From IMG/VR virus record IMGVR_UViG_2579778952_000003: a DNA stretch of 13,627 nucleotides; one strand, given 5' to 3'. Source of the DNA: a virus. Taxonomy: Duplodnaviria > Heunggongvirae > Uroviricota > Caudoviricetes. The notes beneath the pieces were generated by a model. The model was not told where the DNA came from, ran no database searches, and saw nothing but the letters and a program-made list of their open reading frames with translations. Positions 1 through 12,545 of the stretch are shown here, piece by piece (the stretch's first letter is position 1; each line of letters starts with the position of its first letter). The translations under genes and the position numbers were made by a program.

Positions 1-215
1 ATCCGCTATTTATAATCAAATACTCATAACTAATTGAATTTAAATAGCAAATAATATCTTAGATAACTTTAAAAATCGCAAAATGACTACACCAGTAACT
101 ACACCGTTCGGTGCACTGTATGAAACAACGTGGAACAAATAGACACAAGAAATATACAGGCGGGTCATCTTTCCAGGGGGAAGCACGCCAATTCATGAGG
201 GGCGTTAATGTCGAC

Positions 216-229
216 ATGGGGATCCCCAT
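216..229. repeat. Perfect 14-bp palindrome ATGGGGATCCCCAT, preceded by the GTCGAC palindrome at 210-215
   Basis: Read directly; the sequence equals its own reverse complement. Function unknown; may be host or junction sequence. Confidence 0.9.
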
Positions 230-351
230 ATCGGCATCATGCCCACCAGCTTGAAGTATTTTTCGCGGGTGTAAAAATTTGACGGGGTGGGCAGTCCCAT
301 AAGCAATGGGTTGTAGGGATTTCGATCCCACCTCCTGAATGCAATTTTTCG

Positions 352-374: not shown

Positions 375-528
375 GCGGGTTATGCGGGTTAGCGGGTTAT
401 CTTCGCTTGCTAAGTGTTTTTTATTCTTTAATATCAATGAGTTAAAAAATGATGCGTTTGAATATTAGCCAAAGCGTAACCCGCGAGACATTCAAAATAA
501 CCCGCAAATCCCCCCCCAAATAACCCGC
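375..528. repeat. Symmetric repeat architecture: three tandem GCGGGTTA (375-399), an AT-rich spacer of about 75 bp, then three inverted TAACCCGC copies (477-484, 498-505, 521-528) with a C8 tract at 510-517
   Basis: Exact 8-mers read directly in both orientations. The layout resembles recombinase arm-type or accessory-protein binding sites flanking an AT-rich core. Confidence 0.8.
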
Positions 529-730: not shown

Positions 731-780
731 TGTCACTGTGTGTCACTGGTTGTCACTCTCCGTCACGGTATGTCACCACA
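731..780. repeat. Five tandem 10-bp repeats with a conserved (T/C)GTCAC core at exact 10-bp phasing
   Basis: GTCAC at 732, 742, 752, 762 and 772; units tgtcactgtg, tgtcactggt, tgtcactctc, cgtcacggta, tgtcaccaca. Lies directly 3' of the last packaging-operon gene (stop at 783). Helical phasing suggests a protein-binding array. Confidence 0.85.
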
Positions 781-782
781 AG

Positions 783-1076
783 TTAACGTCGTAACCGCTC
801 CGGCTTCTTCCAGTGGTAAGTAATTTTTTCTTTCTCCTGGTACATCTCCACGCGGCGACGATATGACAACAACTCCAGAACTCTGGTGCGTATATTGCGT
901 ATATCCACGCCGTTAAGCTCGATACCGTCACGGCGCATCACCTCAGCCACCACACGCGCGTAATTTTCGGCTATCACGCTGTCCGGCTGCGTGGCCTCCT
1001 GTTTGCCTGCTTCCTGGCTGATTCCGGTAACGCGACGGATTATTTTTAGTAGTTCGGTTTCGCTCATTCTCGTCAT
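783..1076 (-). CDS. Hypothetical protein (97 aa), last gene of the packaging operon; possibly a head completion or adaptor protein
   Basis: ORF overlaps the TerL stop by 4 nt, suggesting translational coupling. No recognisable motif; the functional guess is from position only. Confidence 0.5.
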   Translation of the reverse strand: MTRMSETELLKIIRRVTGISQEAGKQEATQPDSVIAENYARVVAEVMRRDGIELNGVDIRNIRTRVLELLSYRRRVEMYQEKEKITYHWKKPERLRR

Positions 1077-2734
1077 CCCCCATCAACCGCCGAAAGCCGC
1101 TCTTTGTGGCTGTCGCTTATATCAAATGCAAATTCCTCATGTTCTGCCTGGAATGTGCCAAACGCCATCAGAGCCGCAACGCTCGGGTCTATCTTGTTGG
1201 ATGATTTTTTCTTGTTCGGCTTGATATTGGCGTTCGCGTCACTCTGCATCACAACATTACTCATTGACCAGGCCAGCACCGGATCGCCACGATGCACAAT
1301 CACCTTCCGGTTAACAAAAACTTCGAACGATTTCGCCGCCGGACTGAAACGAAGGTATGTTTGCGGGAACGGCTCCACCTCAAATCCTGCCCCCTGTAGC
1401 TGCGTCCTCAGGTGCGTGGCGTTCCATGTATCGAAGCCCACCAGCCTGATATTGAAATTCTCTGCATCCGCCATGATGTCATCACGGATACGGTCATAAT
1501 CAATGCAGTCACCCGGTGTTGTGCGTATCCAGCCCGCCTTTACCCACTGGCGATAGATGGCGCGGTTTTTATTGGCGGGGTTCTGTAGCTGAAATTCCGG
1601 CAGATAGTGACGGGAAACCAGCATAATCTTTTTACCGACCGGAAAGGCATAGCACACGCTGGAAATATCGCTGGTTGATGATAAGTCCAGCCCCGCGTAG
1701 CACTCCTGACCGTATAAATCTGCCTCCGCGAACGTTCCGGCGCACTCCGTCCATGCACCGTTACCCATCCACGGCGTAGCCCCCTGACACCAGATATTGA
1801 ATCGCTTGGTGAGCATTTCCACCCACTGCGACGGAATACCCCGCGCTTTCTGGATGGTTGAGGCCAGTTTTTCACGATCGACGGAAACATCGATATTGGG
1901 ATTCGCCTTTATCCACATCGCCGGATCGTCAACCTCGCTTTCATCATCCAGCTCGTAAATCAGCACGAACATGGATTCGTTCACCTCTTCACCATCCAGT
2001 ATCTGGCAGCAATAGTCATAGTGTTGTTTACAGGCTGAAACAACGTTGCTCCCCGATGTGGTGATGGCAAATAACAGCCCCTCCGGACGCGCCCCCATTC
2101 CCAGTTCAAGCGCGGAATAAACCCCGTTGTCAGGGTGCAGGTGATATTCATCCACAATGGCAAGACTCGGGTTTGTACCTTCAATGGTTGCCGCTTTTGC
2201 TGCCAGTGGCTTTAACAGGCTGTTGGTTTTCGGGTGTATCACCTTGTGTGCCTGAATATTTACCCGCTTTCGTAACGGTCGGGATAAAAGGCACATCTGA
2301 CGCGCATCATCAAACACGATCCGCGCCTGATCACGACTCACGGCGGCGGTGTAAATATCCTGCTGCCCGTTTTCCATAACCAGAAACCAGTTAGCCAGGA
2401 TAGCGGCGACCGTGGATTTGGCATTTTTTCGCGGCACTTCAATGAATGCGCTGGTGTATTTGCGCCGTCCGGTGGCCTTAACCTTAAAGCCCAGGATGCA
2501 CGCAAAGGCGAACTGCTGCCACGGCTCCAGCTCAATGGGGCTACCGCGCATTGCGCCTTTTACGTGCGGACACACCCTGGAAAAGGCAATAAACCGCTCC
2601 ACGACCTCCGGATCGAACGTGTAAAGGGGGTTTTCAAGGTCAGAAAAATACCGTTTAACGGCCTGTTTCAGTCGTTTACAGGCCGTAATTTTGCCGTTTT
2701 TTACGCCTTCTGCGTACTCATGCCAGGCGGTCAA
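1073..2734 (-). CDS. terL: Terminase large subunit (553 aa)
   Basis: N-terminal ATPase region with a PRKNAKST P-loop-like motif and overall large-terminase sequence character. Start appears to be TTG at 2734 with a GAGGA Shine-Dalgarno 5 nt upstream; the start overlaps the TerS 3' end by 17 nt. Confidence 0.9.
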   Translation of the reverse strand: MTAWHEYAEGVKNGKITACKRLKQAVKRYFSDLENPLYTFDPEVVERFIAFSRVCPHVKGAMRGSPIELEPWQQFAFACILGFKVKATGRRKYTSAFIEVPRKNAKSTVAAILANWFLVMENGQQDIYTAAVSRDQARIVFDDARQMCLLSRPLRKRVNIQAHKVIHPKTNSLLKPLAAKAATIEGTNPSLAIVDEYHLHPDNGVYSALELGMGARPEGLLFAITTSGSNVVSACKQHYDYCCQILDGEEVNESMFVLIYELDDESEVDDPAMWIKANPNIDVSVDREKLASTIQKARGIPSQWVEMLTKRFNIWCQGATPWMGNGAWTECAGTFAEADLYGQECYAGLDLSSTSDISSVCYAFPVGKKIMLVSRHYLPEFQLQNPANKNRAIYRQWVKAGWIRTTPGDCIDYDRIRDDIMADAENFNIRLVGFDTWNATHLRTQLQGAGFEVEPFPQTYLRFSPAAKSFEVFVNRKVIVHRGDPVLAWSMSNVVMQSDANANIKPNKKKSSNKIDPSVAALMAFGTFQAEHEEFAFDISDSHKERLSAVDGG

Positions 2735-3074
2735 GCTCGTCCTCTTCCTCTGTTTCCGGTGGATTTCTGCGGCGACTTACCGGGTCAAAACCCAGCAAAG
2801 AAGCCATTTTGATCATTATTCTTTCAGCGTCAGCCTTTGCGCTCAGGGCGGGGTTTCTGCTCTCGCTGCCCTGACTGTTAACAATGCTGAACCCGCGCGT
2901 GGCAAGGTCTTCGACGGCTTTGCGGTATATGGAGTAGTTAACACAATACAGCTCCAGATTGCTCCAGTCGGCGGGGGTAAGGTCTTCCCGTCCGGAAAGC
3001 TGGCGCGATTTTTCCTTCCACTGCCTGACCGCGATTTCATCCAGGTAAGCGGGGGCTTTTGGTGGTCTTGCCAT
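2718..3074 (-). CDS. terS: Terminase small subunit, P27-family-like (118 aa from ATG at 3074)
   Basis: Begins MARPPKAPAYL, typical of P27-family small terminases, with an acidic C-terminal tail. The track ORF extends to 3215, but the conserved N-terminus starts at the internal Met. Confidence 0.8.
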   Translation of the reverse strand: MARPPKAPAYLDEIAVRQWKEKSRQLSGREDLTPADWSNLELYCVNYSIYRKAVEDLATRGFSIVNSQGSESRNPALSAKADAERIMIKMASLLGFDPVSRRRNPPETEEEDELDRLA

Positions 3075-3193
3075 GTTCTTTTTTCGCCCAATTATTTTCA
3101 AAAAAATTCCCGTGCACAAAAATTTGAGGAGGCGGTCGGTGTCCGGCAGGGACGGTTTCGTCCTGAAAACCACCCCCACCCCCTCTGACGGCC

Positions 3194-3370
3194 TCACCAG
3201 CGATTGCGAAAACATTCCATGACCTCGCGGTCACGGTCGGTTAATTGCTTCGCTGTGGTGCGTTCTGTGCGCCCTGTCCTGTTGGCTTTGTGCCCTGTCT
3301 CCTGTGTCTTCCATAAGTCACGCTGCCTTATCAGTCCACGTATCAGCCTGGTTTGCTCCTGTTCAGTCAT
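3194..3370 (-). CDS. Small, highly basic hypothetical protein (about 59 aa) between HNH and TerS
   Basis: Reading frame starts at ATGs (3379, 3373 or 3370) overlapping the HNH stop (3363-3365). Arg/Lys-rich with no recognisable motif; could be spurious. Confidence 0.3.
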   Translation of the reverse strand: MTEQEQTRLIRGLIRQRDLWKTQETGHKANRTGRTERTTAKQLTDRDREVMECFRNRW

Positions 3371-3803
3371 CATCGCCATACATCCAGTCGTTACGGTGTG
3401 CAGCCCGTTCTTCCTGCTCGCGATACATGCCCGCCTTACGGTTCGCTTTCGTGGCTGGATCTTCCCGTGTCGTCTTACGGTTGTGGCACGTCTGGCACAA
3501 TGCCTGGTGGTTCCACTCAGGCCAGAAGAGAACATCACCGCCGCCATTGATGGGGATGATGTGATCCACCACAAGAGCTGGCGTATAAATCCCCTTAGCC
3601 AGACAACGCACGCATAACGGGTTTTTGCTCAGGTACAGGGCGCGGTATTTGTCCCACTGTCGGGAATACCCGCGCGCGCGGCGGTGTCCCCGTCTGGCAT
3701 CCTCTGCACGCCATACAGCCCGTCTGTGCTCTTCACACTTGCCGGACTTCACGCGCTTATTACAGCCCGGCTCAGTGCATCGCCTTAATGGTTGCCACGG
3801 CAT
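3363..3803 (-). CDS. HNH endonuclease (146 aa), terminase-associated type
   Basis: Cys-rich N-terminus (CTEPGCNKRV...GKCEEH) and HNH core (VVDHIIP...NHQALCQTCHNRKT). Start ATG overlaps the connector stop (TGATG). Confidence 0.85.
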   Translation of the reverse strand: MPWQPLRRCTEPGCNKRVKSGKCEEHRRAVWRAEDARRGHRRARGYSRQWDKYRALYLSKNPLCVRCLAKGIYTPALVVDHIIPINGGGDVLFWPEWNHQALCQTCHNRKTTREDPATKANRKAGMYREQEERAAHRNDWMYGDDD

Positions 3804-4105
3804 CAGTACACCCCCACATCACGATAAACCGACCAGAGCGCAGAAATAGCCATAGGCAGTTCAGACTGCTCCACTGGTGAAACTGCTTCCCTGTTCTCGT
3901 ACAGGAAAGCGATGTACATCAGGCAACCAACACGCATTGCCGGGGTAAATTCCAGCCCGTCTTCAAAACGTTTCCCGATATGCTTCTGGCAGGCTTCCAG
4001 CGCCGCATCGGTATACATTTTCAGAAGTTCGCCTTCACCGGATAAATCATCATCAAGTCGAAGATGTGCCCTGACTTCATCAGGTGTAATTCTGGCTTCA
4101 CTCAT
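3803..4105 (-). CDS. gp6-like head-tail connector / DNA-packaging protein (100 aa from ATG at 4105)
   Basis: MSEARITPDEVRAHLRLDDD N-terminus and C-terminal FLYENRE motif match the gp6-like connector family. GGGAG Shine-Dalgarno upstream; the track ORF start at 4168 would overlap portal. Confidence 0.8.
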   Translation of the reverse strand: MSEARITPDEVRAHLRLDDDLSGEGELLKMYTDAALEACQKHIGKRFEDGLEFTPAMRVGCLMYIAFLYENREAVSPVEQSELPMAISALWSVYRDVGVY

Positions 4106-5312
4106 CTTTTCTCCCTTTAATTTCCACAGTCTGTTTCCATGCCTGGCTGAACTCATCACCACCTTCACGCGGCGGCATACCCTCGCGTTCGCGAGCTTCG
4201 TTCGGATTCATGATCCCGCTCTTAATCCCTTTCTCATACGTGGCATAACGTTCGGTGGGTGTGGCGCGCAGTAAATCGGCTGAATCAAACTCAACCAGAT
4301 AACGGGTACCAGGTACGGGAGAAGTCACCAGCAAAGCGGCCTTGATTTGCTGTTCGAAGTTCGCCAGCCACGGGCGCATTGTCATGGTCAGAAATGCGCG
4401 GCTCGCCTCACTGAAATTGCTGTAGGTGCTGTTGCTGTATTCCTGAAGAAAAATCGGCGACACGTTGAACATCCTGGCGATGTCTTCAATGGAGAAGCGA
4501 CGGGAGGCCAGCCATTCCGCATCCTGGTTACTCATCCCCAGCTGCCTGTAATCCATGCCCCCTTCAAGGATTGGCGTTTTTCCGGCATTTTTCGCCCCCT
4601 TGTAGCGTTCCAGTGCGTCTAATGCCTGTTTACCTTTCACGCCGTCCAGCCATTCACCTGACGTGATAATCCCTGCCGCCATCATGCCATCTTTCATAAT
4701 GCTGGCTCCGTGACGCTGTTGAGCAAGGCCAAGCCCCAGCGCCTCACGGCAAATCGTGACGGGGGAACGCCCCAGAAAGCCATCATCCGAGGCATAGCGG
4801 AGATGCAGAACTTCTTCCTGTAAATACGTGCGCACCGTTCCTGTACAGGGTTCGGTGATGGTATAGCGGTATTTGTGTGTGCCTGTGCGTTCCGGTACAA
4901 CACACCCCGGCGCATAAGGATGAAGTGATTTTGGCTGCCCGTCCCGCCCCCACTCAATAACCGCATAGGCGTTACCGTTCAGCAGGCAGTGACGCATCAT
5001 TGTGCGTTTAAACTGGTAAGGTGTCAGGCACGAATTAGGCTGCTCATTCAGCAGAATATCTACCGGGTGACTGTCCAGCCATTCCCGCGCCTCTCTGCCC
5101 TTATCATTGCGTACCAGATACAGGTAACACGGCATCGTGGCCACCGCCTCAGCGATGACAGAAACCGCGTTCATCACAGCAGGCAATGATTCAGCCGTCC
5201 CGGCAGAAACATATTCTCCGGATCCGGTATTTGGTACACCAGACAACGCCAGAAAATCATCAATGGACAGGTTACGCAGATCGCTTTTTTTACGACTAAA
5301 AGGCCACCACAT
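4098..5312 (-). CDS. Portal protein, HK97 family (about 404 aa from ATG at 5312)
   Basis: Conserved portal blocks LNGNAYA, EVLHLRY, REALGLGLA, DAEWLASRRFSIEDIARMFNVSP and a C-terminal PPREGGDE. Start MWWPFSRKK sits 1 nt after the protease stop. Confidence 0.9.
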   Translation of the reverse strand: MWWPFSRKKSDLRNLSIDDFLALSGVPNTGSGEYVSAGTAESLPAVMNAVSVIAEAVATMPCYLYLVRNDKGREAREWLDSHPVDILLNEQPNSCLTPYQFKRTMMRHCLLNGNAYAVIEWGRDGQPKSLHPYAPGCVVPERTGTHKYRYTITEPCTGTVRTYLQEEVLHLRYASDDGFLGRSPVTICREALGLGLAQQRHGASIMKDGMMAAGIITSGEWLDGVKGKQALDALERYKGAKNAGKTPILEGGMDYRQLGMSNQDAEWLASRRFSIEDIARMFNVSPIFLQEYSNSTYSNFSEASRAFLTMTMRPWLANFEQQIKAALLVTSPVPGTRYLVEFDSADLLRATPTERYATYEKGIKSGIMNPNEAREREGMPPREGGDEFSQAWKQTVEIKGRKDE

Positions 5313-5313
5313 A

Positions 5314-5874
5314 TCACAACCCCGCCAGCTCAGCCCAGCGATGACGATTATTTCCTGCCGGGCGTAATTCAGGGTACTGTGCAAACAACGAACGGTGGGC
5401 AATCTCCACGCCGGATTCGGGATAAGCAGGCATCGATGTTATCGTGATTTCACGGAGTTCTGCGGCGGTTACAGTACGCAGATACGGTTTTTGCGCGATA
5501 TTCCACTCCTCGCATAATGCGCGAAAGCCAAAGCTCATCCCTGTAATGTCGCCACGTTCCACCAGCGTAAGCACATCTTTTCCAAGCTGGGTATTTGGCG
5601 GTGTCAGTTCAAAACGTAGCCCGGTGTTATCCTCAGTCAGTACCAGTGAGCCGGATTTGGTACGCCCCAGCAGTCGGGTATAGTCATGCTCATACAGACA
5701 GCGCACATCATTACCCGCCGCCAGATAGTCAGCAAAAGCCCCCGGCGTGAACTGTTCGCGAAACTCGTCCCAGATAATTTCTGAAAGGCTGTTCCAGCGA
5801 ACGGCATAACCCACCAGTTTTTTATCGCTGGCGGTCAGTTCAGATGTACGGATTTCAAAATCGGTGTTTTTCAT
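5314..5874 (-). CDS. Prohead maturation protease, HK97 / S78 family (186 aa from ATG at 5874)
   Basis: Motifs LVGYAVRWN, GAFADYL, CLYEHD, LTEDNTGLRFE, GDITGMSFGF and TSMPAYPESGVEI. GGAG Shine-Dalgarno 7 nt upstream of the ATG; the upstream part of the track ORF overlaps the capsid gene and is rejected. Confidence 0.85.
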   Translation of the reverse strand: MKNTDFEIRTSELTASDKKLVGYAVRWNSLSEIIWDEFREQFTPGAFADYLAAGNDVRCLYEHDYTRLLGRTKSGSLVLTEDNTGLRFELTPPNTQLGKDVLTLVERGDITGMSFGFRALCEEWNIAQKPYLRTVTAAELREITITSMPAYPESGVEIAHRSLFAQYPELRPAGNNRHRWAELAGL

Positions 5875-5894
5875 CGGTGTACTCCATAAAGCTG

Positions 5895-5915
5895 AAAAAG
5901 GAGGCCGAAGCCCCC
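5895..5915 (-). terminator. Candidate intra-operon attenuator between capsid and protease genes
   Basis: Minus-strand RNA GGGGGC-UUCG-GCCUCC (6-bp stem including one G-U pair, UUCG tetraloop) followed by UUUUU. The stem is stable only on the minus-strand transcript (A-C mismatch on plus). Confidence 0.4.
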
Positions 5916-5923
5916 TTTGCTCA

Positions 5924-7069
5924 TTACTTGCCAGCCTGAATTTCCAGAATCTTGATGGCGTTCGAATCCACCACACCACCGCCCAGATATTTCTGGGTAT
6001 AGATGTTAATGAATCCAGGCTCGCTGAAATCCGGACGGGTACGCGTACCGGTTTTATGGTCAACGATGAAATAACCGCGCTTAAAGTCACCGACTGCAAT
6101 CACACCGTCCGGCATAAATTCCAGATATTCAACCGGAAGCCCCAGCAGAGAATCAGGATCACCAGCCTGTAAACGATCGCGCCAGATGTAATCACCAGTG
6201 GCATTTTTCAGTTTTTGTGCGGAGGCGGCTGTATTTGAGTTCATCACCCATACAGCTTTTTTGCGGTACTTATTGCGCAGCGTAAATTTCAGGTCAATCA
6301 GCATATCGGCGCTGAGACTGCCAGTCACTTTTTTCGTCTGGAGCGTACCGAAAGGACGGGTTTTGTCATTATCCGTAGTGCGCGGGAAAGTCAGGAAACC
6401 TTTGGCTTTTTTCTCGCCATCACCGGAAACCAGATCCGTTTCTTCGGTATCAACGAAAGTGTCGCCAATTTCAGAAGATAACCAGCCCATAATATCGACT
6501 TCGGAAAAATCGATAATTTCCTGAGTGGTTTTCGGGTAAGCGTAGATCGGATACAGGCGGATACTGACTTCATTCAGTTTTGGGGTTGCCGTCTGGTTAC
6601 GTGCCGCACCTTCTTCGCCGTGTCCCACGACCGCACCCCCGGCAGAAACCAGTTGCTTAAATTCATTACTGTGAATGGTTTTAACAGTACAGATTTTACG
6701 CATCACCGACTCATCAGAAAGCTGACGCATAATTTCTCTGTTCAGTTCCGGGATAACCGTATAACCACCATCAGCCGGAACACTGCCGGACAGGTTGCGG
6801 GTTTCCCCGGTCAGAATGTAAGAGCGTAGCTCATTTTTGGTGATTTTATCTTCGACGGGAACACCAGGCTGGTTACGTTCTTCATCAGCCACAGACTCGA
6901 GGCGGGAAATTTCTGTGTCGAGGGAATCGGCTTTTGCACGCAGTTCATCAAACTGTTTGCCTTCGTCATCGGTTAGACTGCGGTTTTCACTGTCGGCTTT
7001 TTCCAGCAGGGATCGCATCTGGTTTTTCAGGGCGGTTTTTTGCTGGCGGAGTTCGATTAATTTCTTCAT
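5924..7069 (-). CDS. Major capsid protein, HK97 fold, with N-terminal coiled-coil (delta/scaffold-like) domain (381 aa)
   Basis: N-terminal 100 aa is charged and heptad-like (LRQQKTALKNQMRSLLEKA...); C-terminal region (GYFIVDHKTGTRTRPDF, ILEIQ) is typical of HK97-type capsid proteins. Confidence 0.9.
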   Translation of the reverse strand: MKKLIELRQQKTALKNQMRSLLEKADSENRSLTDDEGKQFDELRAKADSLDTEISRLESVADEERNQPGVPVEDKITKNELRSYILTGETRNLSGSVPADGGYTVIPELNREIMRQLSDESVMRKICTVKTIHSNEFKQLVSAGGAVVGHGEEGAARNQTATPKLNEVSIRLYPIYAYPKTTQEIIDFSEVDIMGWLSSEIGDTFVDTEETDLVSGDGEKKAKGFLTFPRTTDNDKTRPFGTLQTKKVTGSLSADMLIDLKFTLRNKYRKKAVWVMNSNTAASAQKLKNATGDYIWRDRLQAGDPDSLLGLPVEYLEFMPDGVIAVGDFKRGYFIVDHKTGTRTRPDFSEPGFINIYTQKYLGGGVVDSNAIKILEIQAGK

Positions 7070-7137
7070 GAAGGTTTTCTCGCATTGGTTAAGATTCAGG
7101 ACGTGAAACCAACACGGGGGGAGCGCCGCCCGACACT

Positions 7138-7172
7138 CTCGGCATCTCGCAGATCAACCCGGCATCGCGCAG
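7138..7172. repeat. Imperfect 14-15 bp direct repeat (ctcGGCATCtCGCAG / cccGGCATCgCGCAG) in the GC-rich capsid leader
   Basis: Read directly; 20 bp apart, inside the predicted 5' UTR of the capsid operon. Confidence 0.6.
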
Positions 7173-7224
7173 GGGGTCAGGCGGCATTGTGGCGGCTCAC
7201 GTCTGAGTGCCACACGCCAACATA

Positions 7225-7252
7225 TACATAAAAATCAGTATGTAAACATCAA
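7225..7252 (-). promoter_or_regulatory. Candidate sigma70-like promoter for the head/packaging operon
   Basis: Minus strand TTGATG (7252-7247), 16-nt spacer, TATGTA (7230-7225), just downstream of the 7313-7333 terminator and about 150 nt upstream of the capsid ATG. GAACAACC repeats at 7263-7282 lie just upstream. Confidence 0.3.
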
Positions 7253-7312
7253 CCAGAATCACCGAACAACCTGGAACAACCACGAACAAATAATTTACAA
7301 AACCTGAAAAAA

Positions 7313-7333
7313 GGCCCGGAAAAAATCCGGGCC
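7313..7333 (-). terminator. Intrinsic terminator separating the early/replication operon from the head operon
   Basis: Perfect 8-bp stem GGCCCGGA / TCCGGGCC with a 5-nt loop, flanked by A6 on the left and a T-rich run on the right, so a U6 run follows on the minus strand. Dyad is bidirectional. Confidence 0.75.
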
Positions 7334-7342
7334 TTTATCGCT

Positions 7343-7591
7343 TTATTGTTTCACTGGCTCCCGCATTCTGCGTCTTATTTTCCACAAATATTCGATCATC
7401 GCTTCCACCTGCTCACGGTTGGTTGCGAAAATTTCCCCGGTCAGTGAGCTACGCAGAAAATCATGATGATCCACAAAAAATAACGCATCGGAAGAAAGCA
7501 ACCGACGATATTTTTTTGCTGTCGTGGTTTCCAGATCATCAAAACCATGAAGCTTTTTATGTTGCTGAACTTCTTCAAATGTCACTGGCAT
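7343..7591 (-). CDS. Hypothetical protein (82 aa), last gene of the early operon
   Basis: AGGGGGA Shine-Dalgarno just upstream of the ATG at 7591; overlaps the ProQ/FinO-like gene end by 10 nt; followed by the terminator. Confidence 0.55.
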   Translation of the reverse strand: MPVTFEEVQQHKKLHGFDDLETTTAKKYRRLLSSDALFFVDHHDFLRSSLTGEIFATNREQVEAMIEYLWKIRRRMREPVKQ

Positions 7592-8112
7592 GTATCCCCC
7601 TTTGCTGCCCGGCGCTGGCGCTTGTGCTTCTCATTCAGCACCATCAGCCGTGTTTCTGCCTCCTGCTGTTCCTGTGGTGTCACTTCCCCACATGGCTGGC
7701 CTTTCAGGTCGTAACGTGCGCCACCAGCTATCAGGGCGCGGTAATAGCGCGGAGACTGCGCATAGGATGCCAGCGTCGCACGTAATACCCCCGGCCCGAA
7801 TGCCAGCCCCCTGACGGCGATATCCTGCATCAGGTCGTCGAATATCCCCACCTTAAGCGGCTTCGGTGCTTTATGGCTGAATAAGTCAGGCCACATCTCA
7901 GTGAGGCGGTTAACGCGTCGGCGGTTTTTGCGCTGCCTTTTGGTCATATGCTGCCACGGTGTCGCCCCTGTGGGCTTCTGCTGTGCGTTCTGATTGCCGG
8001 GTATCACTTTATGCGCCGATGTGGTTTTATCCTGCTCTTGCGCCGCCTGCGTCGTTTTCTGCGGCGTGCCGTAAATGCCTTTCGGCTTCCGGTTAATGGT
8101 CAGCGTTGTCAT
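7582..8112 (-). CDS. ProQ/FinO-domain RNA-binding protein (176 aa)
   Basis: PLKVGIFDDLMQDI and ASYAQSPRYYRALIAGGARYDLKGQPCGEVTPQEQQEAETRL parallel the E. coli ProQ N-terminal FinO-like domain (PLKIGIFQDL ... [35 protein letters not shown]) as recalled from memory. Basic, Gln-rich N-terminal extension; AGGGGAAGG Shine-Dalgarno. Confidence 0.8.
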   Translation of the reverse strand: MTTLTINRKPKGIYGTPQKTTQAAQEQDKTTSAHKVIPGNQNAQQKPTGATPWQHMTKRQRKNRRRVNRLTEMWPDLFSHKAPKPLKVGIFDDLMQDIAVRGLAFGPGVLRATLASYAQSPRYYRALIAGGARYDLKGQPCGEVTPQEQQEAETRLMVLNEKHKRQRRAAKGDTCQ

Positions 8113-8148
8113 GCCTTCCCCTGTAATTACTCTGTTCGCTGTTGTGAA

Positions 8149-8574
8149 TTAAAACGGTATGTTATCCCCGTACGGGTCATCGTGCTGGCTTGTCTGTTGT
8201 TTTGCCCTGTTCAGTGCGTCAGTGGCCTGGCCCTGTTGACCTTTTTTGCCGCCCGGTCGCGCCGTTCGCGCACTGATTACGCTGTCTGCAATAACCTGCC
8301 AGCCCTGCCGCGTTTCCCCGTTCTGGCCTGTCCACTGGCTCACCTGCATGTTACCCGCCACGCTCACCAGTTCGCCTTTGTGGTGTTTTGCCAGTGCGTC
8401 GGCCTGTCTGCCAAACGCCAGGACAGATAACCACATCGTCGCCGTTCCGTCATCTGCCTGGCTGCACGGCAGGGGAACCGCCATACTCGCCATCGCCATT
8501 TGTGTCCCTTTGCTGGTGGTCTTTAACTGCGGGTCAGCCACCAGCCGCCCGTAAGCCGCTATCTGTGCTGTCAT
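8149..8574 (-). CDS. ssb: Single-stranded DNA-binding protein homologue (141 aa)
   Basis: OB-fold-like core (IAAYGRLVADPQLK ... WLSVLAFGRQADALAKHHKGELVSVAGNMQVSQWTGQNGETRQGW), Gly/Gln-rich linker and an acidic C-terminal tip ending DNIPF (E. coli SSB ends DDDIPF). Confidence 0.8.
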   Translation of the reverse strand: MTAQIAAYGRLVADPQLKTTSKGTQMAMASMAVPLPCSQADDGTATMWLSVLAFGRQADALAKHHKGELVSVAGNMQVSQWTGQNGETRQGWQVIADSVISARTARPGGKKGQQGQATDALNRAKQQTSQHDDPYGDNIPF

Positions 8575-8816
8575 GCTGTCTGCTCTCCGGTTTTAACGTT
8601 GATGGTTGTCACCTGTTCCGCTTCGGCAATCTCCCGTTCTGTCAGCGTGGCAAAGTTTGCCGCTGCCGTGGTCATGAATGCGCTTACCAGTTCGGGATGT
8701 GCTTTTGCGTACCCTTCTCCCGCGTTGCGGTCGATGATTTTTATCGCCACCCTCAGCCAGTGTTCTGTCAAATCAAGGGCGTGAGATTGTGGTTTTTTTG
8801 CGTGCTTCGTTGTCAC
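8571..8816 (-). CDS. Hypothetical protein (81 aa), GTG start
   Basis: GAGGT Shine-Dalgarno 7 nt upstream of GTG at 8816; stop overlaps the ssb start (ATGA). First gene after the iteron block. Confidence 0.5.
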   Translation of the reverse strand: MTTKHAKKPQSHALDLTEHWLRVAIKIIDRNAGEGYAKAHPELVSAFMTTAAANFATLTEREIAEAEQVTTINVKTGEQTA

Positions 8817-8860
8817 AGGCTTTACCTCACAGCAATAAAATAAAATTTTTGCATTTTAAC

Positions 8861-9090
8861 CCTTCACCTGTTCACCTTTTGAGATTTTCCCTTTTTATTC
8901 ATAATGTTAAGGGGTGAACAGTTTCACAAAAACTATTCACCAACTGTTCACCACTGTTCACCCTTAAAGCTCAATAAATAATCAAAAAGGTGAACAGTGA
9001 ATAGTTTGGTGAACAGTTCACAAATAACTGTTCACCCTATAATGTACTGATATAAAAGATATTTATAACAGGGTGAACAGTGGTGAACAG
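8861..9090. repeat. Iteron array of TGTTCACC / GGTGAACA octamers in both orientations: candidate origin of replication
   Basis: At least nine copies read directly (8868-8876, 8914-8921, 8944-8952, 8954-8962, 8989-8998, 9008-9017, 9029-9037, 9072-9080, 9082-9090) in an AT-rich context directly 3' of the primase gene. TGTTCACC is the octamer bound by P4 alpha protein at ori and crr. Confidence 0.8.
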
Positions 9091-9103
9091 TTATTCCATA
9101 AGT

Positions 9104-10918
9104 TTAATTTTTGCTGTCGTCATTTGTGACCGATGCACATGATGGCATCCAGTCTTCTGAATCCTCTGTCAGTGTCACATTTGAACGCAAACCGTGCTTC
9201 GTTTTCCGTTTTATATACTCCCTGCCATATTCCGCCATTGCCCCCGGCATATCTTTACCGAAGCGCGTCAGTGTTACAGGTTTACCGAATCCGTGTGCCC
9301 TCATATATGCCAGATAGGCGTGATAAAGATACCTGCGCGGACTGAACGGAATAATTTCGGCATTACCCACTAACAGACCATCACACATTACCGACGACAT
9401 GAGATAGCCACAGAAGTCCACCAGCGAATCGCCCTCGCGTTTTATCACCAGAGCTTCTTCTGATTTCTGCTGCTCATACAGCAGGCGTTTAGCTTCGTCC
9501 TGGTCAGAAAAACGAGTAAGCAGATGGCGAATCACAACCGCCAGCTCTCCTTCTATTTTTTCTGCCAGCATGGGGTCGCGCTCGTTCTCCGGTACAACCT
9601 CCGAAAAATTGAATATCACCCGACGACGTGAGATCCCCCCGCTGCGGTCACTGAATGACATGGCGTTATTGTTCACCGCCAGCACGACCGCCTGAATGCG
9701 TGTTGAGTAGGGGGCTTTATGCTTCGGGTCGATTGCCACCTTGTCACCGCCTGTAATAGCCTTAATTCCTGCGCCATCACCAGCGTAGCGGGTCATATCC
9801 GGCATGATAATCAGCGAAAAGCCAACCACTAACGCGCGTTCCCTTGCATCTTCCAGCGCCTTCATGCTTGCCGATACTGTGTTGGCCTTACCCGCCAGCA
9901 TGGTGCAAATCTCCGCCATCACGCTTTTACCACTTCCCCCTGGACCTGTTACCTCAATGAATAACTGCCAGTCGTACCGGTTCGCCAGCACCATGAATAA
10001 TGCAGCCAGCACGCGATCCGTCTTGCGGTCATTCTCTGCCACCGAGCAGCGTAACCACTTCCAGAAATTCGGCGCATGTGTTGCCAGCGTTTCCCCCTCT
10101 GCTGGTGGGCTGAAAGGTAATTCACTGGCAATTAACAACCAGTCGTTTTTGTTATGCTCCCGAAAATTACCTGTTCTGGTATCAAATACCCCGTTACTGA
10201 ATCCAATCAGGTTACGGGCTGTATTCCCCATTACAGGCAAACTTAACTTCATGGTATCGACCGCCGATTTAATGGCGTTCTGCGAATAGCTGATCTCCGC
10301 ATCAATGAAAATCTGCGCCATAGCACGCTGTAACTCTTTATCCTGAATCGGCTCCCATACAACGCCGTTGTAATGGTGAACAGTGTCAGAGTCGGCATGA
10401 ATCGCCAGTTCACCGCCATAATGTGCCAGGAGAACTTCGCCGCGCTGGCTTGCTCCCATCTGGTTAAGCGCCAGTGGTGCGGCGCTGTCTTCTGTTTTTT
10501 TCTTAACAGGAAGCTGAATCACCAGACCATCAGAAAGATTCTGGCGCTCACGGGCCAGATATTCGCGCCAGTTCTGCACCTCCTGGCCGTGCATACCCTC
10601 AGGATAAAAATTTGCATCCTGTACGCCTGCCGCCGCCAGCTTCTGACCAATCGCCTTTATCATTACTGGCGCAAGATATCCGGCCCTGAATATGCGCACG
10701 GATTTTCTGCCTTCCGGCACAATTTGCAGCTTATCCAGTTCGGATAACTGCTGCTCCCCAAGCCACACAGGAGGCTCATTATCTCCGGCCATACGCGCGT
10801 CATGTTCCTGCCATTGTTTTGCGTGTGACCAGGCATCACTACCCGCAAAAATAATGACTTCTGTTTCTTTGTGTTTTATGCCGCGTGACTGCTGTTTTAC
10901 GTTCGGTGCCAGTTTCAT
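9104..10918 (-). CDS. P4 alpha-type primase-helicase (604 aa)
   Basis: Primase-like N-terminal half, Walker A GPGGSGKS in the middle, long C-terminal domain; adjacent to the iterons it would bind. AGGGG Shine-Dalgarno; ATG overlaps the upstream gene's stop (ATGA). Confidence 0.9.
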   Translation of the reverse strand: MKLAPNVKQQSRGIKHKETEVIIFAGSDAWSHAKQWQEHDARMAGDNEPPVWLGEQQLSELDKLQIVPEGRKSVRIFRAGYLAPVMIKAIGQKLAAAGVQDANFYPEGMHGQEVQNWREYLARERQNLSDGLVIQLPVKKKTEDSAAPLALNQMGASQRGEVLLAHYGGELAIHADSDTVHHYNGVVWEPIQDKELQRAMAQIFIDAEISYSQNAIKSAVDTMKLSLPVMGNTARNLIGFSNGVFDTRTGNFREHNKNDWLLIASELPFSPPAEGETLATHAPNFWKWLRCSVAENDRKTDRVLAALFMVLANRYDWQLFIEVTGPGGSGKSVMAEICTMLAGKANTVSASMKALEDARERALVVGFSLIIMPDMTRYAGDGAGIKAITGGDKVAIDPKHKAPYSTRIQAVVLAVNNNAMSFSDRSGGISRRRVIFNFSEVVPENERDPMLAEKIEGELAVVIRHLLTRFSDQDEAKRLLYEQQKSEEALVIKREGDSLVDFCGYLMSSVMCDGLLVGNAEIIPFSPRRYLYHAYLAYMRAHGFGKPVTLTRFGKDMPGAMAEYGREYIKRKTKHGLRSNVTLTEDSEDWMPSCASVTNDDSKN

Positions 10919-11214
10919 TTTTTACCCCTGAATCCGTTAATCATGGTTTTCAGCTTCTGGATGTTTGCCCGTGCCCTGGCGTTGCTGGTGGACACGTTAT
11001 GCGGCGCGGTCTGTACCAGAGAAAAATCACGCCGGAACTGATAAACAGGCATCACGCAATCATATTCGTAACCTTCACGGCGGTAGGTTACGCGCCGTTC
11101 TTCCACGCCCTTAATCATTACCGTGCCGCCGTACTGGTCGCGGTAAATATCGCCGCGCGTAAATTTAGGGTGAGTGTTGCCACTGGCAGTTAAGCCAGAA
11201 TATTTAAGTTTCAT
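10915..11214 (-). CDS. Hypothetical protein (99 aa)
   Basis: ORF translationally coupled to the primase; no recognisable motif. Confidence 0.55.
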   Translation of the reverse strand: MKLKYSGLTASGNTHPKFTRGDIYRDQYGGTVMIKGVEERRVTYRREGYEYDCVMPVYQFRRDFSLVQTAPHNVSTSNARARANIQKLKTMINGFRGKK

Positions 11215-11219
11215 TATTT

Positions 11220-11453
11220 TTATTCTCCGGTGTGCTGTTCTTTATATCTGTCGTGCAATAGATCTATTTCTTGCAGTTCCATTATTACAGGCTCAAGAAG
11301 CGTTATTAATGCCGTGGCAATTCTTGATTTTTGTTTGTCGCGTTCATTGTCGCCAAGTGTTTCAAGCCATATGCGCAATATTTCCAGCATGTTTTCACTG
11401 TGAGAAAGTGCAAGAAATGCGCGGTCTATTGTTTCGTGGTAAATATCACGCAT
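11220..11453 (-). CDS. Hypothetical protein (77 aa)
   Basis: ORF with GAGGA Shine-Dalgarno; overlaps the upstream gene's stop by 8 nt. Confidence 0.5.
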   Translation of the reverse strand: MRDIYHETIDRAFLALSHSENMLEILRIWLETLGDNERDKQKSRIATALITLLEPVIMELQEIDLLHDRYKEQHTGE

Positions 11454-12039
11454 GGCTTACATCCTCAGGAAATTTTCTTCTATAACGCGCCTCTGCCACA
11501 TATTCCGCATAATCGGCGGCGATATTCAGTACATCAAGCCCCGTTGATTTATATTCTCTCGTGGAAAGTAAGAAAAAAGCCGCTCTAATAAGCTCTGGCA
11601 TTGACGAAAGCGCATCAGCTGCATTATCAGGAACGCCGGAAAATTCCTGTTTCAGGGAATTAAAACGATCATCACGCATGTTTACCCCCCCCTGAATGAC
11701 CTGATAACCGCAACTGGTCAGCAACTCGATAAATTCCGGCAGTGTGCCGAAACAGCAATCATCACGCAGCCGTTCGCAGGATACCTCGACGCCGTTTTCG
11801 TAGTGACTCACCATACATCCGGTAAAATGCAGATCATCATCGTGATGGCTCGTTGACGGCTTAATCAGTCGCGCACGTTCCGCCAGTTCCAGCAATGCTT
11901 CAACGCTTCCGGCAATTGCACCATCCGGCAGGTGATAATTACGCACTATGCGCCCGTTCTCCACATTGACCAGCAACTGCCCGGTAAATTTCTCGTCAAA
12001 CTGAATGCTGTTAAGGTCAGAAATTGACAGGTTATGCAT
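11446..12039 (-). CDS. Hypothetical protein (197 aa from ATG at 12039), Cys-rich, contains a G8 tract in the coding strand
   Basis: Strong AGGAGG Shine-Dalgarno 5 nt upstream of the ATG at 12039 (the track start at 12057 lies inside the Shine-Dalgarno). G8 (plus-strand C8 at 11685-11692) encodes QGGV. Confidence 0.6.
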   Translation of the reverse strand: MHNLSISDLNSIQFDEKFTGQLLVNVENGRIVRNYHLPDGAIAGSVEALLELAERARLIKPSTSHHDDDLHFTGCMVSHYENGVEVSCERLRDDCCFGTLPEFIELLTSCGYQVIQGGVNMRDDRFNSLKQEFSGVPDNAADALSSMPELIRAAFFLLSTREYKSTGLDVLNIAADYAEYVAEARYRRKFPEDVSHA

Positions 12040-12256
12040 GGTGCACCTCCTGCACATCAGCCATGATAATTTTTCCGGCCTTATCCAGTGCCTGATCGGC
12101 TTTTAGCTGCACAAATGCTAAATAATGGAAGATGCATTCTGATTCTCTGGCTGCGTGTTTATGCGCCCTGTCAGCAATAACAGAAATATCAATAAGCGCG
12201 TGCATCAGCGTAGTGAGCGCGGCGGCTGCTGCGTCCGGTGTGGTTTTATTGCACAT
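12032..12256 (-). CDS. Hypothetical protein (74 aa)
   Basis: AGGGGG Shine-Dalgarno upstream of the ATG at 12256; overlaps neighbours at both ends. Confidence 0.5.
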   Translation of the reverse strand: MCNKTTPDAAAAALTTLMHALIDISVIADRAHKHAARESECIFHYLAFVQLKADQALDKAGKIIMADVQEVHHA

Positions 12257-12452
12257 GGCCTACCCCCTGGCGAATACGGGCAGCGAATACCATCACGCAG
12301 CCAGCCGGGGATTGCTGGCGTGCTTCCTGTTCGCTGGTGGCCTCAATGGTAATCACGCGCGGTTGTGCCGTGCTCAGGGCGATAAAACGCCAGATGTATT
12401 TATTCAGGTTGTACGAGTCCCGCCCTTGCGGGTGTCTGGTATAATTTCTCAT
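12246..12452 (-). CDS. Hypothetical protein (68 aa), first gene of the early operon
   Basis: GAGGT Shine-Dalgarno 5 nt upstream of the ATG at 12452 (MRNYT...). This is the credible 3' portion of the 305-aa track ORF, whose upstream part is rejected. Confidence 0.5.
   Translation of the reverse strand: MRNYTRHPQGRDSYNLNKYIWRFIALSTAQPRVITIEATSEQEARQQSPAGCVMVFAARIRQGVGHVQ
12437..12445 (+). promoter_or_regulatory. Extended -10 promoter element TGgTATAAT on the plus strand, antisense to the first early gene
   Basis: Perfect TATAAT at 12440-12445 preceded by TG at 12437-12438; a plus-strand terminator follows 45-85 nt downstream. No good -35, which an extended -10 can do without. Confidence 0.3.
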
Positions 12453-12530: not shown

Positions 12531-12545
12531 AAGTGTCCCTGTGTT

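Follow-up and report, generated by a model that had tools for sequence, protein, structure and literature searches.

A probable cf-PICI in Escherichia coli yifB without a PF05521 head completion gene

The window analyzed here, a stretch of 13,627 nucleotides, covers nearly the whole length of an island of 15,027 bp in the Escherichia coli gene yifB. The island is very probably a capsid-forming phage-inducible chromosomal island (cf-PICI) of the proteobacterial EcCIEDL933 type, which would build and fill its own capsid and take its tail from a helper phage. An initial annotation had proposed such a satellite with its own small capsid and had mentioned a capsid-forming subclass. Collinearity with EcCIEDL933 and a 74%-identical capsid support the proposal, and the island appears to be a member of this subclass and nothing beyond it. 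The annotation also held that only tails are taken from the helper. Tail genes are indeed absent, but this wording may be slightly too narrow, as a head completion gene (PF05521) is also absent.

Boundaries and gene content

A near-identical copy (99.9%) in a complete E. coli chromosome (locus L001) was used to extend the window. In this copy, an intact tyrosine integrase lies immediately right of the window, and a 16-bp att core (ATCCGCTATTKATAAT) is present at both island ends. The second copy of the 16-mer, with one mismatch, lies at the opposite end, beyond the integrase (L001 25028-25043). The island's size agrees with the roughly 12-16 kb expected initially. Chromosomal core genes are found on either side, with yifB fragments, maoP and hdfR on one flank and ilvL and ilvG on the other. 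When the flanks are joined, yifB is restored intact, with a 100% match to other genomes, and 5398 of 5426 E. coli genomes have this reconstructed empty site with yifB uninterrupted. Tail or lysis genes just outside the window, which the initial annotation had considered, were looked for in the complete L001 chromosome; there are none, and core genes are there instead.

Scans of the full set of 20 genes against Pfam, PHROGs, NCBIfam and PADLOC placed none of them in a tail, baseplate, tape-measure or lysis category, which confirms the earlier statement that tail, baseplate, tape-measure, holin and endolysin genes are missing. No holin-like ORF was found among the genes without assigned function, of which only the 74-aa ORF contains a stretch of mild hydrophobicity (Kyte-Doolittle mean of 1.73 over 19 residues). 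No defence gene was found in the island, and neither P4 sid, psu or delta nor PICI capsid-remodelling families were among the top-scoring families in any scan. The listed gene lengths total 87% of the window, with overlaps counted twice.

The genes all reside on the minus strand (Table 1). They run from alpA and small early genes through a P4-alpha-like replication gene, nine iterons, and SSB and ProQ/FinO genes to the late genes, which are ordered capsid, S78 protease, portal, gp6-like connector, HNH, small ORF, TerS, TerL and 94-aa ORF. The AlpA regulator, iterons, HK97-type head set, HNH, TerS and TerL listed initially are all present and intact, as judged by Pfam and, for the iterons, by shuffled sequences. 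The AlpA gene lies outside the span originally described (783-10918), yet within the window.

Table 1. Features of the island, in window coordinates
Position	Strand	Feature	Support or remark
1..16	.	att core ATCCGCTATTTATAAT, junction with 3' part of split yifB	near-match 16-mer at opposite end
70..234	.	conserved att-proximal arm including AAAATGACTACACCAGTRACTACACCG and ACAACGTGGAACAA	both repeated beside integrase
375..528	.	six GCGGGTTA repeats, three per strand	around AT-rich spacer
731..776	-	five GTGACA/GTGACG repeats, 10-bp spacing	past last late gene
783..1067	-	94-aa ORF, final gene of late operon	PHROG 1561 9e-50
1073..2734	-	large terminase TerL, TTG start	TerL_ATPase 4e-26, TerL_nuclease 2e-52
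2718..3074	-	small terminase TerS (P27 family)	Pfam Terminase_4 4e-23
3075..3193	-	putative cos region, G-rich GGGGGTGGGGGTGG...TTTTCAGGAC	conserved non-coding stretch
3194..3379	-	61-aa ORF	PHROG 3173; 78% identity to EcCIEDL933-type ORF
3363..3803	-	HNH endonuclease, HK97-type cos packaging accessory	Pfam HNH 9e-10; PHROG 144 7e-45
3803..4105	-	gp6-like head-tail connector (Ad1 type)	PF05135 Phage_connect_1 4e-05
4098..5312	-	portal protein	Pfam Phage_portal 2e-91
5314..5874	-	HK97-family prohead serine protease (S78)	Pfam Peptidase_S78 2e-44
5924..7069	-	HK97-type major capsid protein	Pfam 8e-61
7070..7342	-	intergenic region upstream of late operon	terminator hairpin and GTTGTTC repeats
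7343..7591	-	82-aa ORF	PHROG 1957
7582..8112	-	ProQ/FinO-domain protein, accessory slot	Pfam ProQ 1e-23
8149..8574	-	single-stranded DNA-binding protein (SSB)	Pfam SSB 4e-16
8571..8816	-	81-aa ORF	PHROG 1231
8869..9089	.	replication origin or crr-like iteron cluster	nine TGTTCACC, both orientations
9104..10918	-	replication initiator, P4-alpha-like SF3 helicase and origin-binding domain	D5_N, DUF5906, Pox_D5
10915..11214	-	DUF4222 early gene	
11220..11453	-	77-aa early ORF	
11446..12057	-	203-aa early ORF	
12032..12256	-	74-aa early ORF	
12246..13163	-	305-aa ORF downstream of alpA	247-aa hypothetical protein homologue and Icd-like domain, read through
13216..13404	-	AlpA-family regulator/excisionase	Pfam Phage_AlpA 3e-18; ORF runs to 13419

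Replication module, late operon and non-coding elements

The initial annotation named a P4 alpha-type primase. The resemblance to P4 alpha holds for the helicase and origin-binding region: residues 137-599 of the replication protein share 49% identity with residues 313-776 of P4 alpha, and its C-terminus matches PDB 1KA8 (3e-24). The primase part does not hold: an unrelated 136-aa domain replaces the N-terminal primase domain of P4 alpha, and comparison with P4 alpha revealed no recognizable primase domain. The protein scores under the family cut-off of TIGR01613. Over its N-terminal 145 aa, it shows 88% identity to the DUF927-type Rep of the EcCIEDL933-type reference island of O157:H7 (L002), whose capsid sequence matches that of PDB 9GYI. 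The octamer TGTTCACC occurs 11 times in the window versus 0.5 expected by chance (0 of 200 shuffles reached 11), and the nine clustered copies lie directly downstream of the replication gene. In phage P4, the identical octamer is annotated as "ori type 1 repeat", and the placement seen here is that of P4 crr.

Upstream of this module, the 305-aa ORF is 54% identical to L002 17349-18092, and its C-terminus matches the Icd-like family NF033153 (3e-19). Positions 11680-12860 form a variable mosaic stretch relative to L001. The 82-aa ORF and its positional counterpart in the EcCIEDL933 type are 40% identical. The interval before the late operon, with a strong terminator hairpin at 7309-7335 and three GTTGTTC repeats at 7262-7292, is a putative regulatory region.

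The capsid protein matches the EcCIEDL933 capsid (PDB 9GYI) with E = 4e-184. Its residues 1-93 are strongly charged (20 D/E, 17 K/R, 2 Pro), and the SGSVPAD motif at their end aligns with the maturation sites of EcCIEDL933 and HK97. This segment is predicted to be a delta (scaffold) domain that is cleaved before S94. The earlier suggestion that the N-domain serves as scaffold corresponds to the known HK97 delta-domain arrangement and is nothing new. A T=4 shell is likely, because the capsid is 74% identical to the T=4 capsid of EcCIEDL933 and the genome size is the same; this geometry is extrapolated from a 74%-identical protein, and the alignment of the two capsids has a 3-residue gap in a loop region proposed to set capsid size.

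Starts of the protease and TerS genes are the PGAP starts of L001. Assignment of the connector is supported by PHROG 40, "head-tail adaptor Ad1" (2e-28), and TIGR01560 (2e-20). By gene order, counting from the capsid as gene 1786, the 61-aa ORF is presumably the counterpart of EcCIEDL933 gene 1792, mutation of which severely reduces transfer according to the original report (bioRxiv 10.1101/2022.09.08.507074). Between the window and the EcCIEDL933-type island, the putative cos region is conserved at ~90%, whereas the capsid genes are only ~71% conserved at the DNA level. The linear ends of an induced-particle record (LR881103.1) fall in the corresponding intergenic region, between the 61-aa ORF and terS. 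The 94-aa ORF is 77% identical to the ORF after terL in the EcCIEDL933-type island and is missing from several relatives.

Beyond the late operon, a terminator-like hairpin at 693-707 follows the GTGACA/GTGACG repeats. The six GCGGGTTA copies compare with 0.5 expected (0 of 200 shuffles reached six), and the region containing them is 82% conserved in the island of E. coli 042. The att-proximal arm is 94.5% identical to the corresponding end of the EcCIEDL933-type island, and within it positions 80-152 are 80% identical to that island's integrase-proximal end as well. The repeats in this arm are putative binding sites for integrase or AlpA.

Comparison with known satellites and phages

EcCIEDL933 of E. 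coli O157:H7 is the experimentally characterized prototype cf-PICI (bioRxiv 10.1101/2022.09.08.507074; 10.1101/2025.02.11.637232; PDB 9GYI). It makes its own small capsids and packages itself with HNH, TerS and TerL, and it requires helper tail genes and alpA (bioRxiv 10.1101/2022.09.08.507074; 10.1101/2025.02.11.637232), the latter for induction (bioRxiv 10.1101/2022.09.08.507074). Its capsid is a T=4 shell of 47.5 nm that holds 15.5 kb and is cleaved at residue 93 (bioRxiv 10.1101/2025.02.11.637232). The two islands are close in size (15.4-15.5 kb versus 15.0 kb) and collinear on one strand: int, alpA, early genes, DUF4222, rep, ori, SSB, accessory slot and late genes, with the same late order from capsid to ~94-aa ORF. 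Every packaging gene has a match except the head completion gene, which EcCIEDL933 carries between portal and connector. Protein identities are high for TerL (93%), TerS (89%), AlpA (87%), integrase (85%), HNH (84%) and portal (80%), and lower for capsid (74%), protease (61%) and gp6-like connector (56%). EcCIEDL933 differs in its DUF927-type Rep, which shares the N-terminal 145 aa with the P4-alpha-like Rep, in a PerC-family gene in place of the ProQ/FinO gene, in its far-end non-coding repeats, and in its location between phoQ and roxA.

The closest packaging module is that of an uncharacterized cf-PICI in E. coli 042 (NC_017626.1, L003), with TerL 99%, portal 98% and connector 95% identical; this island likewise lacks PF05521. 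Its capsid is only 69% identical to that of the window, and thus the heads are mosaic. Unlike the window island, it has a DUF927-type replication gene, a PerC gene in the accessory slot and a different integrase, and it is located inside terL of an HK97-like prophage.

P4 shares with the island the iteron octamer clustered just downstream of the replication gene, an AlpA/ORF88-type regulator, and a protein matching PHROG "transcriptional repressor" families, a label that the P4 record gives to the cI product. However, P4 lacks genes for capsid, portal, protease and terminase; it resizes P2 capsids by sid, psu and delta and carries its helper's cos site. Classical E. coli PICIs (EcCICFT073, EcCIED1a) resemble the island in their int-alpA-replication front half and in the logic of induction, and the EcCIEDL933 literature notes that PICI and cf-PICI front halves can be identical. 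Classical PICIs are described there as relying on a helper for capsid, portal and TerL and as diverting packaging by means of proteins such as Rpp. With HK97, the island shares an HK97-fold capsid with N-terminal delta-domain scaffold, an S78 protease, a gp6-like connector and HNH-assisted cos packaging; the HK97 shell is T=7, versus the small T=4 shell expected here. The island lacks the tail, lysis and lysogeny-control genes of HK97-like prophages, and its rearranged gene order begins with the capsid and ends with the terminase.

The head completion gene and the helper

A 75-sequence PF05521 HMM gave a best E of 0.83 against all 319 open frames of the window, versus 4.5e-42 for a control match. 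Related portals occur across Enterobacterales, Orbales and Pasteurellales, and the portal-connector-HNH order is found in 72 of 72 scorable species-representative loci. Across species-representative genomes, PF05521 is missing from about 14% of the related islands, and the family finder accepts cf-PICIs with 9-11 of the 11 core components. In IMG/VR, where 80 loci of the closest E. coli relatives were retrieved and 79 were scorable (all portals at least 97% identical), 40 of the 79 have the form without the gene.

This absence could mean that the island is a crippled cf-PICI, which replicates and perhaps fills heads, makes no stable tail-competent particles, and persists vertically or through rescue by a second island. 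EcCIEDL933 carries PF05521 in its packaging module, and every gene of this module that its authors mutated, apart from 1792, is reported to be essential for transfer (bioRxiv 10.1101/2022.09.08.507074). Moreover, some islands without PF05521 resemble fresh deletions: a Xenorhabdus copy has a portal-connector fusion, and the portal of a Gilliamella copy is 100% identical to the one in a neighbour that carries the gene. However, most of the closest E. coli relatives have the form lacking PF05521, and this form is found at different integration sites. Its main packaging genes evolve under purifying selection; dN/dS among E. coli islands likewise without the gene is 0.05-0.27 for capsid, protease, portal, connector, TerS and TerL, and these ORFs are full-length without stops. 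Inactivation of capsid and terminase genes, raised initially, is not observed. The connector start cleanly overlaps the portal stop, and the connector C-terminal motif ALWSVYRDVGVY is identical in aligned connectors from islands with and without PF05521, which fits a partner supplied in trans. Overall, a crippled island seems unlikely.

Two other origins are still less probable. That the island is a decaying HK97-like prophage stripped of its tail, lysis and lysogeny modules is suggested by its HK97-type head and packaging families, which are often annotated as prophage remnants. Such decay is very improbable given the precise insertion bounded by att cores, the intact integrase, a PICI-type int-alpA-replication module with P4-type iterons, intact and constrained ORFs, and a compact architecture that recurs in dozens of genera. 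In addition, the HK97-like prophage co-resident in E. coli 042 has a different capsid-to-TerL order and only 24-30% protein identity. AlpA, the P4-alpha-like protein and the iterons would also suit a satellite of the classical PICI or P4-like kind, which remodels helper capsids. We consider this hardly credible, because the island has its own portal, protease and TerL, a full-length capsid 74% identical to one shown to form an island's own capsid, and no top-scoring match to a remodelling family.

As a cf-PICI, the island would follow a cycle whose steps are all modelled on EcCIEDL933. A helper phage would turn on alpA, and the island would be excised by its own integrase and replicated from the TGTTCACC origin by the P4-alpha-like helicase/origin-binding protein and SSB. 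After expression of the single late operon, the capsid would assemble around the island's portal, with the 93-residue delta domain as a scaffold that the S78 protease then removes. HNH, TerS and TerL would cut at cos between the 61-aa ORF and terS, and one 15-kb unit would be packed into the small, likely T=4, capsid. The gp6-like connector would cap the portal, and the tail-less head, freed by helper lysis, would join a helper-made tail. With a head completion (stopper) gene missing from the island, we infer that the stopper is supplied in trans, most probably by the helper.

The cf-PICI class is already described and common, and the island is an ordinary member. Its one unusual trait within the family is the absence of one of two head-to-tail joining genes, and a helper may thus supply the head completion protein besides the tail.

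A cf-PICI inserted in yifB

The window contains nearly all of an island that is a member of the cf-PICIs (capsid-forming PICIs), an abundant and experimentally characterised family with EcCIEDL933 as its prototype (bioRxiv 10.1101/2022.09.08.507074; bioRxiv 10.1101/2025.02.11.637232). It is collinear, gene for gene, with the EcCIEDL933-type island of O157:H7, and the corresponding products are 93% (TerL), 89% (TerS), 87% (AlpA), 84% (HNH), 80% (portal), 78% (61-aa ORF), 77% (94-aa ORF), 74% (capsid), 69% (SSB), 61% (protease) and 56% (connector) identical. The capsid matches PDB 9GYI with E = 4e-184 and 74% identity. According to its depositors this structure is the EcCIEDL933 capsid, and the capsid sequence of the O157:H7 island matches the aligned 9GYI sequence.

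All substantial genes of the window lie on the minus strand (Table). Assignments were made with Pfam, PHROGs and NCBIfam, at E-values of ~1e-10 or better, down to 1e-180. Behind the AlpA regulation module come a replication gene with its adjacent origin, the island's own capsid, prohead protease and portal genes, the gp6-like connector gene, and then hnh-terS-terL, in the order described for Proteobacteria. The late genes form one tight operon, set off from the early genes by a terminator-containing spacer. Searches with four libraries gave no match to tail, baseplate, tape-measure or lysis families among the window genes, and the island has no tail module. None of the small ORFs resembles a holin, and mild hydrophobicity is limited to one stretch, in the 74-aa early ORF. 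Thus, the gene content read from the sequence in the initial annotation, with its lack of tail and lysis genes, is borne out by Pfam, PHROGs and NCBIfam; the span then proposed for the satellite, 783-10918, holds that content but leaves alpA outside.

Features of the window and of related loci (positions are those of the window unless a locus is named)
Feature	Position	Strand	Remarks
GTTGTTC/GAACAAC-type repeats	7262-7292; 121-141; L001 (E. coli E500002 island copy) 24919-24946		upstream of capsid operon; the other two near both att ends
GCGGGTTA repeats	375-528		six exact copies, three per strand, facing each other across ~80-bp AT-rich spacer
GTGACA/GTGACG motifs	731-776		five, exact 10-bp spacing; directly after last late ORF stop, followed by terminator-like hairpin
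94-aa ORF	783-1067	-	closes late operon
TerL	1073-2734	-
TerS	2718-3074	-
Putative cos spacer	3075-3193		119 bp, 61-aa ORF to terS; termini predicted near TTTTCAGGAC/GAAACC
61-aa ORF	3194-3379	-
HNH	3363-3803	-
gp6-like connector (PF05135)	3803-4105	-
Portal	4098-5312	-	Pfam 2e-91
S78 protease	5314-5874	-	Pfam 2e-44
Capsid	5924-7069	-	Pfam 8e-61; opens tight late operon
Terminator	7309-7335
81-aa ORF, SSB, ProQ/FinO-domain gene, 82-aa ORF	7343-8816	-
Accessory slot, SSB to late operon	7582-8112		ProQ/FinO-domain gene
Iteron cluster, TGTTCACC	8869-9089		adjoins replication gene, downstream
Replication gene	9104-10918	-
N-terminal part of replication protein	10484-10918		residues 1-145; PHROG 2850
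Four small early ORFs	10915-12256	-	one is DUF4222
Mosaic stretch	11680-12860
305-aa ORF	12246-13163	-	Icd-like domain at its end
alpA	13216-13404	-	first in transcription order; Phage_AlpA 3e-18
25-nt repeats, O157:H7 island	L002 5100-5520
cf-PICI inside prophage terL	L003 (E. coli 042, NC_017626.1) 4897-21899
Portal-connector fusion	L054 (Xenorhabdus sp. TCT-1) 10001-11452		486 aa
765-aa gene after terL	L164 (LR881103.1) 2036-4333

A 99.9%-identical copy in the chromosome of E. coli E500002 delimits the island. It is 15,027 bp long between 16-bp att cores, within the ~10-18 kb of att-bounded cf-PICIs. The window start coincides exactly with one core, ATCCGCTATTTATAAT, and the other, ATCCGCTATTGATAAT, lies beyond a tyrosine integrase (Arm-DNA-bind_3 and Phage_integrase domains; 85% identical to the EcCIEDL933-type integrase) at the island's end. 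The integrase is found ~130 bp past the window's right end and is all that the remainder of the island holds. The island splits yifB; the rejoined flanks give an intact yifB with a 100% match to other genomes, and this site is uninterrupted in 5398 of 5426 complete E. coli genomes. Extension in both directions, as suggested earlier, has therefore supplied the integrase, two att cores and total length. Had tail or lysis genes adjoined the window, the element would have been an ordinary prophage; both flanks consist of core chromosomal genes, maoP and hdfR on one side and ilvL and ilvG on the other.

Two other classifications were weighed. The island and both flanks lack the contiguous tail, lysis and immunity modules of a complete HK97-like prophage. 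A decaying prophage is unlikely: the element is inserted precisely, its front half is of PICI/P4 type and its gene order is rearranged. Moreover, its proteins share little identity with those of the HK97-like prophage co-resident with the E. coli 042 island, and its compact architecture is widespread. An element that remodels helper capsids, whether a PICI or P4-like, is excluded because the island has its own capsid, portal, protease and TerL and no sid/psu/delta-type match among the top-scoring families. Classical PICIs use a helper capsid and portal, whereas this island has its own portal, connector and TerL; in the published model, portal and head-tail connector genes are excluding components for that class. 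From the P4-like set (psu-delta-sid operon, epsilon, alpha and alpA), only the C-terminal two-thirds of an alpha-like protein and alpA are present, and no homologues of sid, psu, delta or epsilon were among the top-scoring families in any scan.

Experiments on EcCIEDL933 showed that its small capsids are island-made and that its HNH, TerS and TerL package no DNA but the island's; helper tail genes are required, as is alpA for induction. Its capsid (T=4, 47.5 nm) holds 15.5 kb, and the capsid protein is cleaved at residue 93. Helper-dependent induction, small capsids and helper-tail transfer have been shown only for EcCIEDL933, KpCIDSM30104 and EcCIGN02175. In the window capsid, a charged N-terminal domain of 93 residues ends in SGSVPAD, aligned with the EcCIEDL933 cleavage motif; the scaffold role suggested for this domain is that of the HK97 delta domain, which is already known. 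The collinearity with EcCIEDL933 supports the proposal that the element builds its own capsid, but "only tails" from a helper may be too narrow a description, since a head completion gene is missing. The proposal itself adds little to what is known, because cf-PICIs were described in 2022-23, a capsid structure is available and the catalogue runs to about a thousand elements (969), with carriers making up 13% of Enterobacteriaceae genomes. Of the 5426 complete E. coli genomes, 531 have related capsid genes (48 at 90% identity or more), and related portals are found across Enterobacterales, Orbales and Pasteurellales.

Several accessory features vary among these islands. The slot between SSB and the late operon carries a PerC-family regulator in EcCIEDL933-type and 042-type islands; here, it carries a ProQ/FinO-domain, RNA-chaperone-like gene, for which Rfam revealed no partner RNA. 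The 305-aa ORF is a homologue of a 247-aa hypothetical protein (54% identity) joined to an Icd-like domain. The 247-aa gene lies downstream of alpA in EcCIEDL933-type islands, and in other islands its counterpart and the Icd-like part are two genes. The mosaic stretch departs from the E500002 copy. A PADLOC scan gave no defence genes in the accessory slots.

Replication, packaging and non-coding elements

The replication protein (residues 137-599) and P4 alpha (residues 313-776) share 49% identity, and the C-terminal domain of the former matches the P4 origin-binding domain (PDB 1KA8, 3e-24). TGTTCACC, identical to the annotated "ori type 1 repeat" of P4, occurs 11 times in the window against 0.5 expected. 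Nine copies are packed into 220 bp immediately after the replication gene, and a repeat cluster in this position is common to P4 and the window. Nothing in the window protein corresponds to the N-terminal primase domain of P4 alpha, and no primase catalytic domain was recognised in it. The island shows that a cf-PICI replication module can be P4-like. The designation "P4 alpha-type primase" is only partly right: it holds for origin recognition, but primase activity finds no support in the sequence because an unrelated 136-aa domain stands in place of the primase domain. Over residues 1-145, the protein shares 88% identity with the start of an otherwise unrelated one, the DUF927-type Rep of EcCIEDL933-type islands, and this N-terminal domain appears to be a shared, exchangeable module.

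The putative cos spacer is ~90% conserved with the EcCIEDL933-type island, compared with ~71% DNA identity of the capsid genes. LR881103.1 (16.5 kb), which GenBank lists as a "phage" and which came from an induced lysate, is a related cf-PICI whose linear ends fall in the same spacer, although the record may have been oriented by convention. These ends and the spacer's conservation fit HK97-style cos packaging with HNH. A second cos-like site at 262-295, suggested by a 34-nt similarity to the putative cos spacer, was rejected because its local-alignment score of 33 lies inside the shuffled range (mean 23, maximum 45). The ends of IMG/VR contigs are uninformative about cos, since they are prophage-prediction boundaries or gene edges and share no common site. 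LR881103.1 was deposited as "Escherichia phage vB_KppS-Ant" and carries both head-tail genes; the 765-aa gene after its terL is probably an accessory gene, wrongly labelled "tail length tape measure protein". The island is now precisely delimited, and its att cores, its integration site, its origin and a probable cos region have been placed.

A 780-bp non-coding stretch separates the last late gene from att. Within it, a region with 82% conservation in the island of E. coli 042 holds six copies of GCGGGTTA, against 0.5 expected by chance; the arrangement resembles a protein-binding array or a second origin-like site. Where the window has its GTGACA/GTGACG motifs, the EcCIEDL933-type island carries a different set, of about five 25-nt repeats, GGCGCGGTAACTnGnTGATATT, each beside a short palindrome. 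Neither GGAACAA nor GTGACA is enriched over the whole window; only local clustering in 10-bp phase is notable. The GTTGTTC/GAACAAC-type repeats before the capsid operon come just after the terminator. These repeats are candidate AlpA sites or integrase arm-type sites; across the window as a whole, their core heptamer shows no enrichment. A sigma-70 scan gave 12 sites versus 14.4 in shuffles, and no promoter was assigned. An Rfam scan of the window gave no C4/IsrK-type or P4 cI-type RNA, and two sub-threshold plant microRNA matches on the palindromic iteron cluster are artefacts.

A related island inside a prophage terL

In E. coli 042, a cf-PICI whose portal, connector and TerL are 95-99% identical to those of the window is integrated inside terL of an HK97-like prophage; nine further loci (L098, L107-L109, L115, L118, L119, L122 and L126) are grouped with it. 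With ...VNFFTK at the end of the N-terminal terL fragment and NILTKHMNVW... at the start of the C-terminal one, precise excision is expected to re-create the phage terminase. A connector, a head completion, a gp10 and a gp17 gene are all still present in the prophage itself; thus, the satellite lies within a likely tail donor, whose packaging gene it interrupts. We found no description of a cf-PICI inside a helper-type terL in the cf-PICI literature examined.

The head completion gene

EcCIEDL933-type islands have two joining genes between portal and HNH, encoding the head completion protein (PF05521, 7e-23) and the gp6-like connector. The window has the connector gene only: the portal-HNH gap is 298 nt, and the connector start overlaps the portal stop. 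The PF05521 protein expected of a cf-PICI is thus absent, and neither tblastn nor a 75-sequence HMM found a homologue in the window's 319 open frames (best E = 0.83; positive control, 4.5e-42). Of the small ORFs examined for a substitute, the 94-aa ORF scored best and was rejected; its E-value of 0.83 is noise, and this ORF is present in EcCIEDL933-type islands and absent from some relatives that lack the head completion gene.

In EcCIEDL933, mutation of each packaging-module gene except the small ORF 1792 is reported to have abolished transfer. The adaptor-connector pair sets tail specificity, and so which tails a cf-PICI capsid can use. The published family finder still assigns elements with 10 or 9 of 11 core components to cfPICI (Types B and C), and its authors describe many of these as functional; hence, the island is a variant inside the family.

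The trait was scored in 151 related loci. Among species-representative genomes, both genes are present in 62 and the head completion gene is missing in 10 (14%), belonging to Xenorhabdus, Pantoea, Symbiopectobacterium, Yersinia, Leclercia, Erwinia and Gilliamella; for several of these ten, the closest portal relative bears the gene. Of the 79 scorable loci among the nearest E. coli relatives in IMG/VR, 40 are without it. Five loci with a 97% identical portal have the head completion gene together with a different connector (56% identical), so that the two genes act as a swappable cassette. Between cf-PICIs and one HK97-like prophage, head completion proteins share 52-64% identity, compared with 24-30% for capsid, portal and connector. 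The connectors of gene-less islands interleave with those of gene-bearing ones, so that a separate clade or diagnostic change was rejected; the C-terminal motif is the same in the aligned connectors examined from both groups. In the Xenorhabdus sp. TCT-1 island, portal and connector form a single in-frame fusion. A deletion apparently removed the head completion gene and connector start there, which indicates that at least some gene-less copies are recent deletions.

The missing gene could mean that the island is a cf-PICI defective in transfer. This is improbable: in the gene-less E. coli lineage, capsid, protease, portal, connector, TerS and TerL are full length with dN/dS of 0.05-0.27, and such purifying divergence argues against a dead element. 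We infer that a head completion protein is supplied to the gene-less sub-lineage in trans, with the helper as its most likely source; alternatively, tails may dock directly on the connector. That gene-less cf-PICIs form a functional sub-class, working in one of these two ways, is a tentative reading, to which we give a little less than even weight.

No discussion of the loss of this gene was found in the cf-PICI literature examined. The gene-less form is a recurrent, selectively maintained variant without one of the two head-tail joining genes. If the functional sub-class exists, the view that cf-PICIs steal only tails would not be universal, and helper range would be set by the interface between the connector and a helper protein. 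Borrowing of the missing protein from the helper would thus refine the prediction of cf-PICI host and helper range.
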